From assembly GCA_018897195.1 (NCBI GenBank), contig JAHILH010000004.1:83678-147677 (forward strand): a stretch of 64,000 bases of DNA, in the 5' to 3' direction. The notes below the pieces were generated by a model that was given only the letters and a program-made list of their open reading frames with translations, did no database searches and was not told the origin of the DNA. Within the stretch, counting starts at the first letter, position 1; each line of letters starts with the position of its first letter. Shown here in pieces: positions 17,622 to 62,055 of this stretch. The stretch comes from Patescibacteria group bacterium (lineage in GTDB: Bacteria; Patescibacteriota; Patescibacteriia; Patescibacteriales; UBA12075). The position numbers and the translations under genes were made by a program.

Positions 17622-18655
17622 ATTTCAGTAATTATTTACAATACTTCCATTATACCACAGAAAACAAAAAAAAATAGCTCAAAATAAAAAAAATAATAAC
17701 TTATTCTCTTAAAGATAATCAATATTTTGATTATTTTATTAGAGAGCGAAATTTTTACCTCTCCGAGAACCAACTATTTATTCTATAGCTAGACTGATTG
17801 CCCGCTTACCAAAATATATTTTACAAGCCAGGTAACTGCTTACTTTATTATTACTGAGATATTAAAGAAATTCCTCATCCTTGCCTTTGTCCTAAATTGA
17901 AGCAAGGTGTTCCCGTTTATTTTTCGTCGGCCTGGCGGGAGTCCGACTATATCGAAGAGATCAAACTCTTTGATATAAAAACCGCTTTAGATTGACAAAT
18001 CTACTCATCACAGCACCTCAAATGAACGAGGTTTATTACTTTACTACATTATTAAGCTGCGTTTTTTATAAATTAACCAATATTTTTTATTGCCGTTCTC
18101 ATCTCCTAAATCTCACAAAGATTTAACTACAAAAAAACTTCGCTTAAAATTGTAGACGATATTTCCATAAGATTAATGAATTATTTTTTATAGATCCATT
18201 TATCATTATTTCAATATCCCAATCTTTGCGAAGTTTTAGGAGATGAGTATTTTCATATACCGATGTTAACGTTCAAGGCACGACCCGCCGAGGCGGATCA
18301 TAATGAATTAAGTTTCATTATGACAAGCATGAAATTTAATTTACTTTGTTTGCTGCCGACTCGTGAATTAAACGAAGTCAGAAGCGCTTTGGTCTTAAGC
18401 AATCTTTCAGCTTAATAAATCAGTATAGCAAACATTTTGAAACTTGTCAATAGTCTTTGACGGAAATTATCATTATTAATTATTTATTGCTAACTTTAAA
18501 TATAATTATAATCAATATCTTGTTATTTATATAAAACAAAAGTAGGCTAATAATGTAATATAAATAATATACATTTATTTTCGCATTATAGACAATACAT
18601 GATGCTTTCTTAACACAATGAGATTATGCATTATGATTTAAGAAAATAAGTGCTG

Positions 18656-18745
18656 CCTCCCTCTCCTTTGTAGGAGAGGGTTAGCGTAATCCTCGTCCGA
18701 TTAATTATAAAGGGGACGGGGTGAGGTAGAACGGGCGAGGGAGAA
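18656..18745. repeat. GC-rich palindromic repeat, diverged copy C
   Basis: It shares the 5' hairpin CCTCCCTCTCCT..AGGAGAGGG and the 3' GGTGAGGTAGA...GGCGAGGGAGAA with copies A and B. The middle differs. Confidence 0.6.
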
Positions 18746-19347
18746 TACAATGGCAAACTTCTCGATATATTTATTCAAAATCATAAATTGCATATAAAAC
18801 TAAAAAAGACCAATTTTTTAGATTGATCTTTTTTATTACTTATATTTTTATCTTCCCAGACATCGCAAGATTAATACAATAAAACTTCGCTTAAAATTGC
18901 ATCAATCAATACGAAGTTTTGGGAGATAATATAATGTACAGGCTTGAAAAAGCCATTGGGACAAATCTAAATGTATTTAGCACAACGTTTTTTGGAATAA
19001 ATTCTTTACTCGTTGTAAATAACTTTGAAGAAAAGATAATCATTCCATATTTATAACCACATCAGATAAACCACTTTAGTCGCAACAACGAAATAAAATA
19101 GTTCATGTAGAATATTAATTCTAGGTAGATGTAACAAGTGTGGAAAATTTTAGATTTGTTTCAATGTGCTTTTTAAGTTAATTTGTCAGTTTAGCAAACA
19201 TTTTTAAAAATGTCAATAATAAACAACAATTTTACAATATTAATTAATTAATAGCTATTATTAAATAAAATAAAACAATAATATATGTCACATGCATACA
19301 ACTTTAATAAAATTATCTGCCAAAATAACTATATCCGTCAATAAGTA

Positions 19348-19376
19348 TTGACAAATATTTTTAAGTATGCTAGACT
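19348..19376 (+). promoter_or_regulatory. Candidate promoter TTGACA-N17-TAGACT for the 19526 small ORF
   Basis: A perfect -35 hexamer and a 17 nt spacer are followed by a weak -10. Confidence 0.3.
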
Positions 19377-19525
19377 AATATATTAACTCAGAACATTCAA
19401 AACTAAAAAGGAAATTACCCCCTGTAAAGCCTTCAACAAATTATGGTGACGGCCTTACAGAGGAAGAATTATAAAAAATATCTGCGCAAAGCAGAATCCC
19501 CTCTCTAAATCATAAAGATAAATAT

Positions 19526-19684
19526 ATGATGAGATCAATTTCCGGAACCTTGTCGTTGATGCTATCAATGGCAGTCCTACGAACAACACTACCTGAAGCC
19601 GCAGATCTTCTAGGTCAAATCCTAGTAACGTCATTAACCATGGTTAACGGCTTACTACACCACGCCGGATCATTGCAGATATAG
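19526..19684 (+). CDS. Small ORF (52 aa, MMRSISGTLSLMLSMAVLRTTLPEAADLLGQILVTSLTMVNGLLHHAGSLQI), unusually GC-rich; alternatively a structured ncRNA
   Basis: GC content is about 48% in a ~30% background. A strong terminator follows immediately. The ORF is below the track's size threshold. Confidence 0.3.
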   Translation: MMRSISGTLSLMLSMAVLRTTLPEAADLLGQILVTSLTMVNGLLHHAGSLQI

Positions 19685-19692
19685 AAACCCAA

Positions 19693-19720
19693 AAGGGATT
19701 CGAAGAATCCCTTCTTTTTC
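19693..19720 (+). terminator. Intrinsic terminator (AAGGGATTC-GAA-GAATCCCTT + T-run)
   Basis: A perfect 9 bp stem and a 3 nt loop are followed by CTTTTTCC. Confidence 0.6.
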
Positions 19721-20186
19721 CGGAAGAGGAATTACAAAGCGATTTAGCGAGCAACATCACTCATGGAATTACTTTGTCATTTCTGACAAACAGCACATTA
19801 AAAACACAAAGACTACTGTTTGTATCGCAATCAACTAATTTTGTCTCTTCTTACTAAGAGAGATAATATATTTTTTTCACTACAATAATGGAGGTGTTAT
19901 ATGGGTGGATGAAATTGCATAAGCAAAATCGTCTGTGGTTCTAGTAACTGGACTAGAACCATAAAACCTACGTGACATTTTAAAATCCATAAGGAGAAAA
20001 ATGAACGGTTAATCAGCTTTCAAATCATCGGTAAGGGAAAAATAACTAATTTATTTTCTACTTTTCTGGAGAAAAAAATGAACGGCTAAATTCCAACTAG
20101 GCATCTCTAATATTGATGAAGTTGATTGTTTTGACACAAAATAGAAAAAATCTATAAGCTGGTATAATCACTACCACTTAAAACAA

Positions 20187-20225
20187 AACCCCCTTCGAAT
20201 AAATTCGAAGGGGGGTCTTTTTTTA
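20187..20225. terminator. Bidirectional terminator (CCCCCTTCGAAT/ATTCGAAGGGGG) at the 3' end of the TrmB-like gene
   Basis: A 12 bp perfect GC-rich stem has a T-run on the + strand and an A-run upstream. Confidence 0.7.
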
Positions 20226-20229
20226 TAAA

Positions 20230-31200: not shown

Positions 31201-31779
31201 TTATTTTAAAATAATATTAAACGAATCTAGTAAGGTCGAAGCTTCGGGATAAGAAAATTTTGCGCCCTTAATTTTATTCTGCATCAGGTCAATATAGTAA
31301 TTTTTCGCCCCGGATAAATCTGCTTTTTCCAAAATTGTATTTTGAAATTTACTGCCTTGCAAATCAGAGCCGGAAAAATCAACTCCCGTTAAATTAGTTT
31401 TAGAGAAATCCGTTTCTTTTATAGTACAGTCAATAAATTTCGTCAATCGAATTTCTAAGCTTTGAAAATCACAAAGATCGATAACACAATTATGAAACGA
31501 CCATTCTATTAATAAAGTCTTTACACTCGAAAAAGCGACACCGACTATTTTACAATTTTTAAAAACAACATTTTGAAAACTACAATTATCAATCTTAATG
31601 TTGGCAAGATTTGAGTCTGTAAAAGCACAATCGACAAACGACGCGCCGGAGAATTTACTATAACTAAAGTCACATTTTACAAATAAACAGCGAACAAATT
31701 CTTTATCCTGTAAGTCTTGTCCGGTACACTGAATCTTATTAAACGTTTCTTTTTCAAAACTTTGCTCTTCAAATTCCAT
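31201..31779 (-). CDS. Pentapeptide-repeat protein
   Basis: Consecutive A(D/N)LXX-type pentapeptides (CDFSYSKFSGASFVDCAFTDSNLANIKIDNCSF...) cover most of the protein. Confidence 0.8.
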   Translation of the reverse strand: MEFEEQSFEKETFNKIQCTGQDLQDKEFVRCLFVKCDFSYSKFSGASFVDCAFTDSNLANIKIDNCSFQNVVFKNCKIVGVAFSSVKTLLIEWSFHNCVIDLCDFQSLEIRLTKFIDCTIKETDFSKTNLTGVDFSGSDLQGSKFQNTILEKADLSGAKNYYIDLMQNKIKGAKFSYPEASTLLDSFNIILK

Positions 31780-32963: not shown

Positions 32964-33425
32964 ATGCATCCAGGTTTAATAAACAGGACTTATCCTGTTA
33001 AAAAAACTGAAAAGGGCTATATTATCAAAGGAAAAATTTCATCAAAACTAGAACCTCAATATTTGGCAATAAATCCAAATAACGGTGAGCTATTTTTACT
33101 GCTCATAAACCTGGAATTTTCTGAAAATCGAAAACAAGGCGCAGACAAACCCAGTAAGGAGCGCTATTTCTACAAAGATAATGGAGGTTTATTTGCCATT
33201 TTAAAAGGAAACGAGGTTACTGGCTTACGCTTTGGAAATGTTACCGATGCCGACTCTTGTCCCTATTGTTGGAATGTTTACTTCACAACTCAAGACGGTG
33301 TCTCTGGTGTTATGATTTCTCCTGATCCTGACCAAATGACAAAATTAAGACCACGTTTTCAAAAAAAGGAACCTGGTTCTAAGGCAGAGGTACTAAAAAC
33401 TGTTCCTTACCGAATCATTGATTAA
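32964..33425 (+). CDS. Hypothetical protein (153 aa)
   Basis: A strong SD AAAGGAGGAG is present. No motif was recognised. Confidence 0.4.
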   Translation: MHPGLINRTYPVKKTEKGYIIKGKISSKLEPQYLAINPNNGELFLLLINLEFSENRKQGADKPSKERYFYKDNGGLFAILKGNEVTGLRFGNVTDADSCPYCWNVYFTTQDGVSGVMISPDPDQMTKLRPRFQKKEPGSKAEVLKTVPYRIID

Positions 33426-33516
33426 TAATTAAAGCCGCCAGTGGACTCATCGAGCACCGCGGGCTTTTTTCTTTTTCGGAAAAATAAAAAAGAGTATTCC
33501 ATTTCGAAATACTCTT

Positions 33517-33864
33517 TTAAGTTTCTGCGCTATGTGCCACCATGGCATATAAATAAGCCACAATATAATGTGACTCCATTTCGGCAAAAGCTTTTACCTC
33601 TGGCCATGCTTCTTTTCTTGGAACATCATCAAGGAAGCGCGCTGTTTGTTGTTTTAAACAGCTTAATTGCATACCGTCATGAAACCTAATATTCAAAAGA
33701 AAAACATTTCGGTCTTCTAAACCGATATCTTCAAACACTAGACCATCTCTTGTGAAAGCATTATACAAAAAATCTCTTTCTCTGGACGAGATAATTTGCC
33801 TGCCATGTACCAGGTCATCAAAGAAAGCTTTCCACACAACGTTTTCGTTAATCGGTTTAGCCAT
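33517..33864 (-). CDS. Hypothetical protein (115 aa), GC-rich island
   Basis: This is the last of four co-oriented genes. It lies 12 bp downstream of 33877..34242. No motif was recognised. Confidence 0.4.
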   Translation of the reverse strand: MAKPINENVVWKAFFDDLVHGRQIISSRERDFLYNAFTRDGLVFEDIGLEDRNVFLLNIRFHDGMQLSCLKQQTARFLDDVPRKEAWPEVKAFAEMESHYIVAYLYAMVAHSAET

Positions 33865-33876
33865 TATCTCCTCCTC

Positions 33877-34242
33877 TTAAAATTCGACATGGTCGATGAT
33901 TGTTGCCAAGATGAACGCAATAATTGGTTGACTGCGATAATCGGCGTACTTGTTAATTTCCCGCCATATAATGGTCAGTTTGTTCCCATGCATTCCGCTT
34001 TGTTTTTGTTGCCTACGCGCCGCTTCGGCTAAACATTCACACTCGCGGTCGGTGCAATACAACGTAATCTCTTTTAACATTGAATCAAACTGTTCTCTTT
34101 TAATTTTCACAAAGGTGGCTGGCAATTGCTCCAAAAGCGCGATTATCATCATTTTGTCGTCAGCCAATATTACTCTTGTCCGTACCAAAACTCCCAATAG
34201 CGACAACCCAGTTAGATTTTGAAGTTCAGCGACAATGGCCAT
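33877..34242 (-). CDS. Hypothetical protein (121 aa), GC-rich island
   Basis: It is tightly paired with 33517..33864. No motif was recognised. Confidence 0.4.
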   Translation of the reverse strand: MAIVAELQNLTGLSLLGVLVRTRVILADDKMMIIALLEQLPATFVKIKREQFDSMLKEITLYCTDRECECLAEAARRQQKQSGMHGNKLTIIWREINKYADYRSQPIIAFILATIIDHVEF

Positions 34243-34395
34243 TGTTTTTCTCCTTCTATTTTTTAGTTTTAATGTGCGGTTGATAATAAATTAAATTAGC
34301 ACATTAGTTGACCAAAGTCAAGACGAAGTAATTCGCCAAAATTTAAAAAGGGCTTACTAATTTCTTAGCAAGCCCCAATTTTACTTCATGCAATT

Positions 34396-35166
34396 TTACT
34401 CTATAATACCAGCTGCATGAGCCAACATCATAGCTGTGTCGGTGTATGCATCCTTGCACACATAACTTCGGCCGCCGTGTACCAGAGACCCGGCTCGTCG
34501 AAATTCTAAATATCTGGAATAAGAAAGTTCCGTCGTGCCTGTCGTAACCGTGTCCCGCACCTGGCCACTGATGACCTTGACCTCAACGGCGAATATTGGC
34601 ACCTCGTTCCCGAGAATACCACGCTCCGAGATGATGTCACCGACCTTGGTAATGGAGCCAATTTCCGTTCCAACTCCAAGCTCATTCAAGACACAACGCT
34701 TAACCGAGTCTTCAACAGATTCTCCATCCACTGAAATGGTTCCAGGAATTTCCACACACCATTTTCTGGTAGCATGTCGAAATACCAGCGACATTATTGC
34801 CTTGCCGTCGCATACCGGCAATACCGCCACGCCGACAGATCCATGCAGACCGTTGATATACACCAACCGGTCGTACAAGCCAGTCGTTACAGTTTTGCCA
34901 GGAAACAGCACCGGGTCGCGCAAAAAAGCAAAATACTTGTCCATAACGATGATTCCGCTTTTCCATGAAGTCGTCTGTCCAACCAGACCGTTAAAATTGA
35001 AATGATTATGCTTATGAAGCTCCTCAATTTCGATAATGGTAGCCGGATTGGTAACGATTTCAATCTCGCCTCGATTCACATCACCGAGGTAAACTCCAGA
35101 CATCTTAATGAAGTCTAGATACTGTTTGATGTGCATCGGTACATATTTTCTATCGTCGTCAGTCAT
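34396..35166 (-). CDS. NudF-like NUDIX protein with degenerate catalytic box
   Basis: GESVEDSVKRCVLNELG aligns with the E. coli NudF GESVEDVARREAIEEAG, but REx2EE is replaced by RCx2NE. The upstream core AVLPV...W..EIPG matches. GC content is about 50%, against ~33% in the flanks. Confidence 0.55.
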   Translation of the reverse strand: MTDDDRKYVPMHIKQYLDFIKMSGVYLGDVNRGEIEIVTNPATIIEIEELHKHNHFNFNGLVGQTTSWKSGIIVMDKYFAFLRDPVLFPGKTVTTGLYDRLVYINGLHGSVGVAVLPVCDGKAIMSLVFRHATRKWCVEIPGTISVDGESVEDSVKRCVLNELGVGTEIGSITKVGDIISERGILGNEVPIFAVEVKVISGQVRDTVTTGTTELSYSRYLEFRRAGSLVHGGRSYVCKDAYTDTAMMLAHAAGIIE

Positions 35167-35516
35167 TTCTCAGCCTCTTTCTTGTTATTATTTTTATAAA
35201 CAAAATAAGCGATCATCACAAACGAGCTTGAAAACAACTTGATACCATTCCCAATTATCAATGGCCAGTTTCGGATACTCCAGCCATAACAAAGCCAGAT
35301 TAATCCTATCGACAAGATCATTACAAACGTCCACAGAGAAACATCCTTCGCCTCTTTAAGCTTGATAATTTTAGCCGCCTGAAATAGCGGATTAAACTCA
35401 AGCAAGGTGGTTCCAAAAGCCATCAACAATAGTGGGTCCTGCTTCGTTTTTGAAACAAATGACAATATTTCTACTATTAAAGTCTTCATCATTTCCCCCT
35501 TTACCATTATTGGCAT
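35163..35516 (-). CDS. Small 3-TM membrane protein, PQ-loop/SemiSWEET-like
   Basis: NPLFQAAKIIKLKEAKDVSLW...LIWLCYGW resembles the PQ-loop consensus. Its stop overlaps the NUDIX start (ATGA). Confidence 0.4.
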   Translation of the reverse strand: MPIMVKGEMMKTLIVEILSFVSKTKQDPLLLMAFGTTLLEFNPLFQAAKIIKLKEAKDVSLWTFVMILSIGLIWLCYGWSIRNWPLIIGNGIKLFSSSFVMIAYFVYKNNNKKEAEK

Positions 35517-35806
35517 ATTTGATTATTTTCAAAGATCACAACCAATAAATATAGCACAAGTACCGCTATTTGTCAATAATATTTTCCAAATTCCTTGTTA
35601 TTATATATTGTCCTTAATATTAGCCATAATATCACAATATATGGGCTTTTGCATTAATCCTAAAATTTTGATATTATCAATATATATTGCTCTGGACAAA
35701 ATCACAAAAACGTGCTAATGTTAGAAGACCGTAAACTTCTATCAAAGTAATGAATTTCTGGTTTTAAAAATTATAACAAACTTCTTTGACTTAATACATA
35801 AATAAT

Positions 35807-37346: not shown

Positions 37347-37516
37347 CGTCATTCCCGCGAAGGCGGGAATCCAGGTGCCTCGTATTTTATTTCACATATA
37401 AGGAAAATTAAAATAAATAAAGTTTTTTTGTTAATAATATTTATATCACGATTAGTCTCTATAATTATTGACCCACTTTTTGTGGCGCCTGGATTCCCGC
37501 CTTCGCGGGAATGACG
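37347..37516. mobile_element. MITE-like 170 bp element with 33 bp terminal inverted repeats CGTCATTCCCGCGAAGGCGGGAATCCAGGTGCC
   Basis: The TIRs match 32 of 33 positions. Each TIR contains the internal palindrome ATTCCCGC-GAAG-GCGGGAAT. The AT-rich core has no ORF. The element sits exactly between the der stop and the pth start. Confidence 0.6.
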
Positions 37517-60788: not shown

Positions 60789-62055
60789 TTAGCTCTCATT
60801 AACGAGATTAAACTTCGTGGCGATTACCTGGGCTGCCACATTCAAATCCTTAAGACCAACCATCACTTCAATGGTAATACCCGGAGAAGCCTGGGATACG
60901 ATATTAATTCCCGCTCTACCCAAAGCGTCACAGACATCACGCAGGTAGCCAGGGCGGTCATCCATTAACGGATCAACCAGAGTTAAAACTGCCAAGGTTT
61001 CCAAGGCGGAAATCTTAATGCTTGGCATCATGTCAATTTTTAACGTTGCCAAAGAGGTTTGAACTTCTTGGCTCACGTTATCAGAAAACAATATAGAGAT
61101 AGAGGCTTCCCGTTCTTTAGCCGGAGCCTGAATACTGCCGCGTAAATTAATATTGTGCAAGGCATTATAAATATTCGCTGCTGCTCCGGGTTGATTGGGC
61201 ACGTGAGAAATTCGAATCATGTTCAATTTTTGAATAGCCAATCCGGCCTGACTCTCCTCAGTGTCAATCTGCGACAAGGTGCTCCCGGAACACACTACGG
61301 TTCCGCCGGTACTTTTACCAAAACTCGGACTAAGCATCACTCGAATTATCACACAAGTTTTGAGCCAGAAGCACCGCCCGATCCATCAACTTGCCACCGC
61401 CAACCGAGGCTAGCTGTGTCAGCTGATGATAAGAAATATGCTCGAATCTTTTAGCGTTGGGCACTACGCGCGGGTCGGTAGCATAAATCCCGTCGACGTC
61501 GGTGTAGTTTTCACAACAACATCCGCCCAAAACAGCCGCCAAACAAACAGCAGTCACATCCGAACCGCCACGACCCAAAGTCGTGACCACTCGCACAGAA
61601 CCAGAAACCTTAATACCCTGGAAGCCGGTGACAATAACCACCTTGCCTTTATCCAGCTCGCCTTTGATCAAATTATTTCCCTTAATCATCTTTACTCGCC
61701 CAGTAACGCTTGCCTCTAATTGAATTTCGCGACTAGTCAAGGAAATCGCTGGCACATCAAGACTGGCCAACGCCAATGCCAAAAGTGGCGCGGACTGTTC
61801 TTCGCCAGTAACCAAAAGCTTATCCAACTCATCCCGCAAACTAGCGGGAATAACGCCCTGATAATTTTCCTCTGCTAGTTTAATCAAGTCATCGGTGGTG
61901 TCACCCATCGCCGATAAAACAACGACTACGCGCCAACCCTTTTCTCTGTTTGACTTGATATGTTCCGCAACCTTGCGCATCCTTTCCGGATTAGCAATCG
62001 AACTGCCCCCAAACTTCATTACCAGGTTTTTACCCTTACCATTTGTGTTTCCCAT
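60789..62055 (-). pseudogene. lysC: Aspartate kinase split by a +1 frameshift near 61345 (kinase domain 61330..62055, ACT domains 60789..61352)
   Basis: The N-terminal ORF ends ...GGKLMDRAVLLAQNLCDNSSDA*. The shifted frame continues ...IIRVMLSPSFGKSTGGTVV then the ACT motifs ISHVPNQPGAAANIYNAL. The junction is at a TGTGTG tract. Confidence 0.65.

Follow-up and report, generated by a model that had tools for sequence, protein, structure and literature searches.

Why should a gene for a sugar-transporter-like membrane protein overlap, stop codon on start codon, with a gene for a Nudix protein whose catalytic motif is altered, and what are the two small genes next to them? These questions are raised by a four-gene cassette in a 64,000-nt stretch (hereafter, the window) of an AT-rich chromosome segment (36.8% GC overall) from a member of the Parcubacteria/Patescibacteria (candidate phyla radiation, CPR; GCA_018897195.1, contig JAHILH010000004.1, 83,678-147,677, forward strand). 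Four co-oriented open reading frames (ORFs) of 117, 256, 121 and 115 aa lie on the minus strand where an earlier note on this DNA had placed them, and the NCBI entries identical to their products carry the label hypothetical protein, 'Candidatus Parcubacteria bacterium'. That note had read them as a single operon in a GC-rich island of horizontal origin, possibly a defence or toxin-antitoxin (TA) module. We arrive at a different reading, to which we give a probability of roughly 0.55: the cassette would be an old, inherited region in which one unit encodes a SemiSWEET together with a cysteine-substituted Nudix protein, and a separate unit encodes two orphan paralogs. What is newly recognised here is a Cys-substituted clade of the ADP-ribose pyrophosphatase (ADPRase) fold that recurrently partners a SemiSWEET subtype.

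The 256-aa Nudix protein carries GESVEDSVKRCVLNELG, with RC..NE where the canonical box has RE..EE. In residue numbers, the box runs T143(x5)E149(x7)R157-C158-V-L-N161-E162-L-G164-V, with G148 preceding E149; measured against the intact Nudix box GX5EX7REUXEEXGU, the first glycine is shifted by one residue, RE has become RC, and EE has become NE. When aligned by profile to ADPRases of known structure, the box lacks two of the three glutamates of REx2EE, which agrees with the catalytically degenerate, NudF-like box described earlier, and a corrected alignment does not restore an intact box: RC still aligns on RE. A word-indexed search with this protein returned only six clusters. An alignment of these six, used in a hidden Markov model (HMM) search, recovered 701 relatives belonging to a family of approximately 250-aa proteins, and PF00293 was matched at E <=0.01 in 34 of 51 relatives. 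Canonical relatives match the NCBIfam NudE/YffH models (best NudE E = 1.8e-19), and a profile of the clade described below matches the solved structures of ADPRase 8wv3, NUDT5, NudF, and Ndx2 (2yvm) with E = 7e-9 to 3e-5. Judged by these matches, the protein is best placed in the Nudix superfamily, closest to the characterised ADPRases of the NudF/NUDT5 type. About 20 residues follow the Nudix domain, and the extra N-terminal region of approximately 70 aa is common to the wider 250-aa family. The canonical, RE-type branch of this family is common in metagenome-assembled genomes of Chlamydiae (loci L008-L018; L numbers denote individual loci or contigs), and a scan of genome contigs for the family gave mostly canonical RE-type Chlamydiae genes and one locus of the RC type.

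RC is our own name for a clade within this NudE/NudF-like family, represented by 27 tips in a neighbour-joining tree and by 28 members in the alignment. The clade is monophyletic in the tree, window protein included, and RE is present in none of its members. Most family members read PRG...GEx7RELxEETG...PDxG, the RC clade PGT...GEx7RCxxxELG...SERG. Cys stands at position 158 in 23 of 28 RC members; none of them has Glu there, the residue of 115 of 125 other family members. All 28 have Gly at position 142 (Arg in 109 of the 125 others), and 27 of 28 have Arg at position 182, where the others have Ser/Thr. E149 and R157 do not vary within the clade, E162 is present in 21 of 28 members, and the window protein has also replaced the second box glutamate, by N161. 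A proline some 15-16 residues past the box is said, by Dunn and colleagues' account of 1999, to mark ADP-ribose/ADP-sugar pyrophosphatases; the window protein has Ser180 at this position, and the RC clade has Ser in 13 members, Pro in 8, and Ala in 5. Because the residue signature is conserved throughout the clade, the RC site is remodelled and maintained, not decaying. The first box glutamate has given way to a conserved cysteine and an arginine has moved from PRG to ERG, and this remodelling, as opposed to decay, makes new chemistry or the sensing of a ligand a candidate role for the clade. In MutT and ADPRases, the RE glutamate binds the metal directly, and its mutation cuts kcat by orders of magnitude and cripples Mg2+-dependent hydrolysis. 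In the literature library searched, no paper joined Nudix proteins with SemiSWEETs and none dealt with a cysteine in the Nudix box; for Nudix with Patescibacteria, the search gave irrelevant papers only.

The partner gene product, noted previously as a PQ-loop/SemiSWEET-like membrane protein, matches PF03083 above the gathering score (E = 8.9e-11; 42.1 bits, cut-off 23.7) as well as the solved SemiSWEETs 4rng (E = 2.4e-6), 9kax, 4qnc, and 4x5m. Three hydrophobic segments are present in the sequence, and the pocket residues W74 and N90 are retained in the alignment to 4rng and 9kax. The curated cut-off of NCBIfam SemiSWEET_2 is not reached (44.9 versus 80 bits), and we regard the protein, from its sequence matches, as a divergent member of its family. 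Translation may in fact begin at the ATG at 35492 or 35489, giving a protein of 108-109 aa as in relatives.

To what extent do these two genes belong together? Besides the window lineage, we examined approximately 10 independent contexts of distant RC members. In one of these (L024), the gene for an RC-Nudix protein from the other subclade (P0023; 37% identical to that of the window) is followed after 7 nt by a gene for a 92-aa SemiSWEET, which is 47% identical to the window protein over 83 aa (E = 3e-21) and shares with it EFNPL[FW]Q and the Trp/Asn pocket. The gene order is opposite to that in the window, and a terminator lies 3' of the pair. That the same rare SemiSWEET subtype should have come to lie beside an RC-Nudix gene twice by chance is very unlikely, and we accordingly regard SemiSWEET and RC-Nudix as a recurrent, non-obligatory pair. 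The conserved linkage that the earlier note asked for does not hold for the four-gene set as a whole, the small proteins never occurring with distant Nudix homologs; it is the SemiSWEET-Nudix pair within that set whose linkage recurs.

Other genes around distant RC members encode an NTP_transferase (sugar-1-phosphate nucleotidyltransferase; L024, L031), dTDP-sugar isomerases or epimerases (L024, L026, L027), and HIT hydrolases (L026, L027), and radical SAM genes directly adjoin the RC gene in L025, L027, and L029. Two of the latter (L027 4232-6105 and L029 3543-5390) are orthologs of approximately 365 aa with 39% identity (E = 1e-96) and a CNHxCPxC motif; radical SAM and RC-Nudix genes have opposite orders in these two loci, and the adjacent radical SAM gene of L025 is shorter. 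The approximately 365-aa radical SAM enzyme is thus a second recurrent partner of the RC clade. What RC neighbourhoods have in common is genes of nucleotide-sugar and nucleotide metabolism rather than of defence. The earlier note had offered NAD/ADP-ribose salvage as an alternative to defence. Nucleotide or ADP-sugar metabolism suits the distant neighbourhoods better than defence; no NAD salvage gene (pnuC, nadR, nadM, prs) was seen in the cassette flanks. In a Candidatus Azambacteria locus (L007 6960-8768), the RC-Nudix gene adjoins an IS-type (insertion sequence) transposase pair and precedes a spermidine synthase gene, a hint at mobility of the gene in other lineages.

The ATGA overlap between SemiSWEET stop and Nudix start, the 153-bp gap between the Nudix gene and that of the 121-aa protein (p121), and the 12-bp gap from there to the gene of the 115-aa protein (p115) are all seen in the sequence as described. 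The single four-gene operon is not supported. A strong intrinsic terminator sits 3' of the Nudix gene and, because of it, the cassette probably comprises two transcription units, one for SemiSWEET and the Nudix protein (unit 1) and one for p121 and p115 (unit 2; Table 1). The candidate promoter of unit 1, with 11 of 12 consensus matches, is the top-scoring site of the region and presumably functional. Good Shine-Dalgarno sequences precede both p121 and p115, and an Rfam search found no riboswitch or other element in the unit 1 leader or in the 153-bp gap. The 4-nt overlap of SemiSWEET and Nudix genes is unique among the 42 same-strand gene pairs of the window, and it is kept in the relatives L001, L004, and L021.

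Table 1. Features of the cassette, in window positions, in the order of transcription.
Feature	Position	Strand	Remarks
Sigma-70-like candidate promoter, unit 1	35548..35576	-	TTGACA, 17-nt spacer, TATATT, TG before -10; consensus match only
SemiSWEET-type 3-TM (transmembrane) transporter gene, 117 aa ORF	35163..35516	-	PF03083
RC-clade Nudix-fold protein, 256 aa, ADP-sugar pyrophosphatase-like	34396..35166	-	start overlaps SemiSWEET stop (ATGA)
Intrinsic terminator closing unit 1, 3' of Nudix gene	34349..34376	-	12-pair stem, 4-nt loop, T-run
Weak candidate promoter, unit 2	34293..34321	-	TTGACT, 17-nt spacer, TAATTT; read by eye from sequence
p121, lineage-restricted small protein, 121 aa	33877..34242	-	AAGGAG upstream of start
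p115, lineage-restricted small protein, 115 aa	33517..33864	-	GAGGAGGAG upstream of start; predicted six-helix bundle
Intrinsic terminator closing unit 2, 3' of p115	33488..33518	-	terminator scan

The same four genes occur in the same order in four related contigs (L001, L002, L004, and L021), with proteins 65-84% identical to those of the window. In each of the four, a CDF transporter gene borders the cassette at one end; der borders it at the other end in L004, the sole related contig reaching that far. Synonymous sites are saturated relative to these relatives (dS, the synonymous divergence, of 1 or more), and the ratio of nonsynonymous to synonymous divergence (dN/dS) is 0.05-0.19 across all four genes (SemiSWEET 0.08-0.19, Nudix 0.05-0.09, p121 approximately 0.14); all four are therefore real genes under purifying selection. 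Given this synteny in each of the four relatives found, despite saturated dS, we take the cassette to be an old accessory region of this Parcubacteria chromosome that has been passed on vertically, and any foreign origin of its DNA would predate the divergence of these lineages. Recent horizontal acquisition is also at odds with the GC content of the Nudix gene, which is 45-48% in each relative, and with the lack of mobility marks, no tRNA, integrase, or flanking direct repeat having been found at the cassette. The surroundings are housekeeping genes (der, pth, dprA, CDF). Immediately beside the cassette, a 153-aa plus-strand ORF without a family match and a pentapeptide-repeat gene (window 32964-33425 and 31201-31779) are absent from L004, where the CDF gene comes directly after p115; this is local gene gain or loss next to the cassette.

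The compositional signal that had been described as an island at 33.5-35.2 kb shrinks to approximately 0.7 kb of the Nudix gene and does not extend to the other three genes. Gene mean GC in the window is 37.7% (sd 4.1); the Nudix gene has 47.2% GC and a third-position GC (GC3) of 0.50, with 100-nt windows of up to 58% at 34.4-34.9 kb, and the SemiSWEET (37.0%), p121 (42.1%), and p115 (38.2%) genes are all inside the normal range. The GC deviation is confined to the Nudix gene (z = 2.3), whose cassette has raised GC3 in three of its four genes. GC of at least 50% in 300-nt windows is reached at four other sites of the window as well, namely, dprA, an SPFH gene (twice), and an amino-acid kinase/ACT pair. 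In codon usage, measured over the 56 genes of the window, the cassette does not stand out: with a length-corrected deviation of z = 5.0, the Nudix gene takes 10th place among them, below der, polA, ruvB, and dprA. For genome scanning, the case shows that locally raised GC in a CPR genome says little about recent transfer. As a separate observation, the amino-acid-kinase ORF (61330-62055) and ACT-domain ORF (60789-61352) of the pair just mentioned, both of 45-49% GC, overlap by 23 nt and, from their arrangement, look like a split or frameshifted aspartokinase-type gene.

A horizontally acquired four-gene defence or TA island, consisting of a membrane effector, a pseudo-Nudix nucleotide sensor, and a small toxin with its antitoxin, would account for the GC-rich Nudix gene (47% versus 37.7%) and the raised GC3, the degenerate box, the IS element beside one distant homolog, and the two adjacent small genes of TA-like size. 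Against this, PADLOC and PHROGs give no match for any of the four proteins, Pfam and NCBIfam yield no defence, toxin, or antitoxin family, and relatives are missing from viral contigs, phage records, and plasmids, with the exception of distant Streptomyces Nudix genes. No toxin fold was recognised in the predicted model of p115. The patchy distribution in defence islands or mobile elements that such a module would have is not what we see, given the housekeeping neighbours and the synteny in all relatives found; the terminator moreover divides the cassette, and distant homologs adjoin nucleotide-sugar genes, not defence genes. We consider this view largely refuted already, and what probability it retains is very small.

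The small proteins were described before as two unknowns, and they remain orphans in our searches. Each has four clusters among 5.8 billion proteins, all from this lineage (p121 clusters 65-100% identical), and neither matches a family in Pfam, NCBIfam, PADLOC, or PHROGs, or a sequence in the PDB. The fetched RC loci outside the close relatives contain no p121 or p115 homologs, and the small ORFs near other RC genes (108 and 124 aa in L005; 132 and 115 aa in L031) are unrelated to them. The C-terminal 28 aa of p121 and p115 are significantly alike, with a Smith-Waterman score of 48 (z = 5.3-5.7); of 2000 shuffles, no more than 1 attained this score, and block shuffles keeping local composition were included. 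The two profiles align with an hhalign E of 0.029, and the top non-self match of each HMM is the other protein. They look like diverged, lineage-restricted tandem paralogs. Both genes share a reading frame, parted by TAA and 3-4 codons (a GAG-repeat Shine-Dalgarno), in the three lineages checked (window 33517-34242; L001 1350-2072; L004 3149-3874), which may be coincidence or the trace of a once-fused two-repeat gene. The predicted model of p115 is a six-helix bundle without a fold match. Weak single matches to Peptidase_C101 (E = 0.084), VisN (E = 0.097), and sortase B (E = 0.33), and likewise to Bcl-2-like or Insig helical bundles, were taken as chance.

How might such a locus work? Gene architecture, clade signature, and recurrent pairing are direct results; a role in nucleotide-sugar handling is what we propose on top of them. 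Unit 1 would encode a translationally coupled pair of a SemiSWEET-type sugar uniporter and a protein with an ADP-sugar-pyrophosphatase fold. The latter should be incapable of canonical three-carboxylate, Mg2+-dependent pyrophosphate hydrolysis and would keep a pocket for a ligand of the nucleoside-diphosphate-sugar (NDP-sugar) type. It could then be a ligand-sensing partner that controls sugar flux through SemiSWEET or, as another option, an enzyme of altered chemistry, relying on a thiol or a soft metal, for which the transported sugar is a product or a substrate. The products of unit 2 would be all-alpha cytosolic proteins; we found no evidence for a functional tie of p121 and p115 to unit 1. 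A stronger version, in which the RC clade is a dedicated cytosolic SemiSWEET partner, either a gating sensor or a cysteine-dependent NDP-sugar glycosyl hydrolase feeding or draining free sugar, strikes us as improbable at present; if it is true, bacterial SemiSWEETs would for the first time have a defined physiological pathway.

Several points weigh against our reading of an old region with a SemiSWEET/RC-Nudix unit and a separate orphan-paralog unit. The window protein alone scores below the PF00293 cut-off (15.7 versus 21.1 bits), and its AlphaFold2 (AF2) model, made from a 6-sequence alignment, is of low confidence (predicted local distance difference test, pLDDT, 38.8). Cys158 is put at the metal site solely by alignment, and we infer from sequence the biochemical function, ligand, and activity of the Nudix protein as well as any physical interaction with SemiSWEET. 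SemiSWEET is found in the flanks of only 2 of approximately 11 independent RC lineages, and the pairing is thus not obligatory. In unit 2, the candidate promoter fits the -10 consensus at 3 of 6 positions and was not called by the promoter scan; given this weak promoter, read-through from unit 1 into unit 2 is conceivable. The 28 C-terminal residues, finally, are the whole basis of the paralogy of p121 and p115.

Two simpler explanations draw on part of the same evidence. The Nudix protein might be an ordinary, active ADP-ribose/ADP-sugar pyrophosphatase in NAD or nucleotide-sugar salvage, with an odd box and a transporter gene adjacent by happenstance. Its top relatives in PDB and NCBIfam are indeed ADPRases, NUDT5, and NudE, nucleotide-metabolism genes lie in the neighbourhoods, and a metal site could persist given that E139, E149, E162, and E181 are conserved and that EE or DE still stands at 161-162 in several RC members. 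The absence of the metal-binding RE glutamate from the entire 27-tip clade argues the other way, as do the loss of the second glutamate in the window protein and the lack of NAD salvage genes nearby, and we hold this explanation to be rather unlikely. Somewhat less likely still is that no functional module exists, the genes being unrelated neighbours in a compact genome and the L024 adjacency a co-transferred DNA segment. A SemiSWEET neighbour is missing at most distant RC members, the small proteins never accompany RC-Nudix outside this lineage, and tight spacing is general in the window, where 12 of the 42 same-strand pairs are separated by <=20 nt. However, each of the two major RC subclades has the pair, with the gene order reversed between them, and identities of 37% and 47% speak against recent co-transfer; SemiSWEET genes are rare, which makes a second chance encounter with the same subtype very unlikely, and the overlap or 7-nt spacing is kept.

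Two features elsewhere in the window deserve mention. A 33-nt inverted repeat (37347-37516), whose arms are 97% complementary and separated by 104 nt, occupies the spacer between der and pth, is the sole copy in the window, and has a sub-threshold Rfam match to WsnRNA46 (35.7 versus 65.3 bits); it is possibly a small palindromic or MITE-like (miniature inverted-repeat transposable element) sequence, or a structured RNA. Between polA and a TrmB-like gene (17622-20229), 2.6 kb of approximately 30% GC contain no ORF of at least 60 aa and no Rfam match, an unusual length for a compact CPR genome.

Among known systems, the ADP-ribose/ADP-sugar pyrophosphatases (NudF, Ndx2 2yvm, the Bacillus ADPRase 8wv3, and NUDT5) are the best sequence and profile matches of the Nudix protein. 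Like Thermus thermophilus Ndx2, it has a beta-strand region before the Nudix domain (residues 82-110 aligned on Ndx2 13-40), and GESVED at the start of the box is identical in Escherichia coli NudF. It differs from these enzymes in having RC for RE, NE for EE, and PGT for PRG, in its post-box loop (S-E-R-G instead of P-D/N-S/T-G), and in the extra N-terminal region of approximately 70 aa. NrtR, a regulator of NAD metabolism, likewise has a degenerate ADPRase-like Nudix domain, which binds ADP-ribose without hydrolysis. However, NrtR has a C-terminal winged-helix DNA-binding domain, whereas the Nudix domain of the window protein nearly reaches the C-terminus and no helix-turn-helix family was detected in it by Pfam or NCBIfam. 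The window SemiSWEET resembles the bacterial SemiSWEETs of known structure (4rng, 4qnc, 4x5m, and 9kax) in its size of approximately 100 aa, its three TM helices, and its pocket Trp and Asn; it differs from them in that TM1 has NPLFQ and no contiguous PQ, and in having a conserved operon partner, the RC-Nudix protein. To our knowledge, the native substrates and physiological roles of bacterial SemiSWEETs are poorly defined, and few of them lie in a genomic context that tells much about them; with a conserved operon partner, the present case offers a concrete point of entry.

For the two proposed roles of the RC-Nudix protein, there are precedents outside its own clade. Earlier losses of box residues go with new chemistry, as in GDP-sugar glycosyl hydrolases, or with non-enzymatic roles (PMC5389931). 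GDP-mannose mannosyl hydrolase is a Nudix enzyme that has lost box residues and changed its chemistry, so that free sugar is released (PMC5389931), and free sugar is the kind of molecule that SemiSWEET carries. It belongs to another Nudix clade, however, with other residues lost and no conserved Cys, and is not among the PDB matches of the RC profile. For a sensing partner, the model is the NUDT9-H domain of TRPM2, a catalytically dead ADPRase homolog that gates a vertebrate channel upon ADP-ribose binding (PMC6461439). Both are ADPRase homologs with a mutated box that are tied to a membrane transport protein, with a sequence relationship no closer than that of the ADPRase family. NUDT9-H is fused to its channel, whereas the RC-Nudix protein is separate and its interaction with, and gating of, SemiSWEET are putative; if true, the sensor version would be a prokaryotic two-protein analogue of TRPM2/NUDT9-H.

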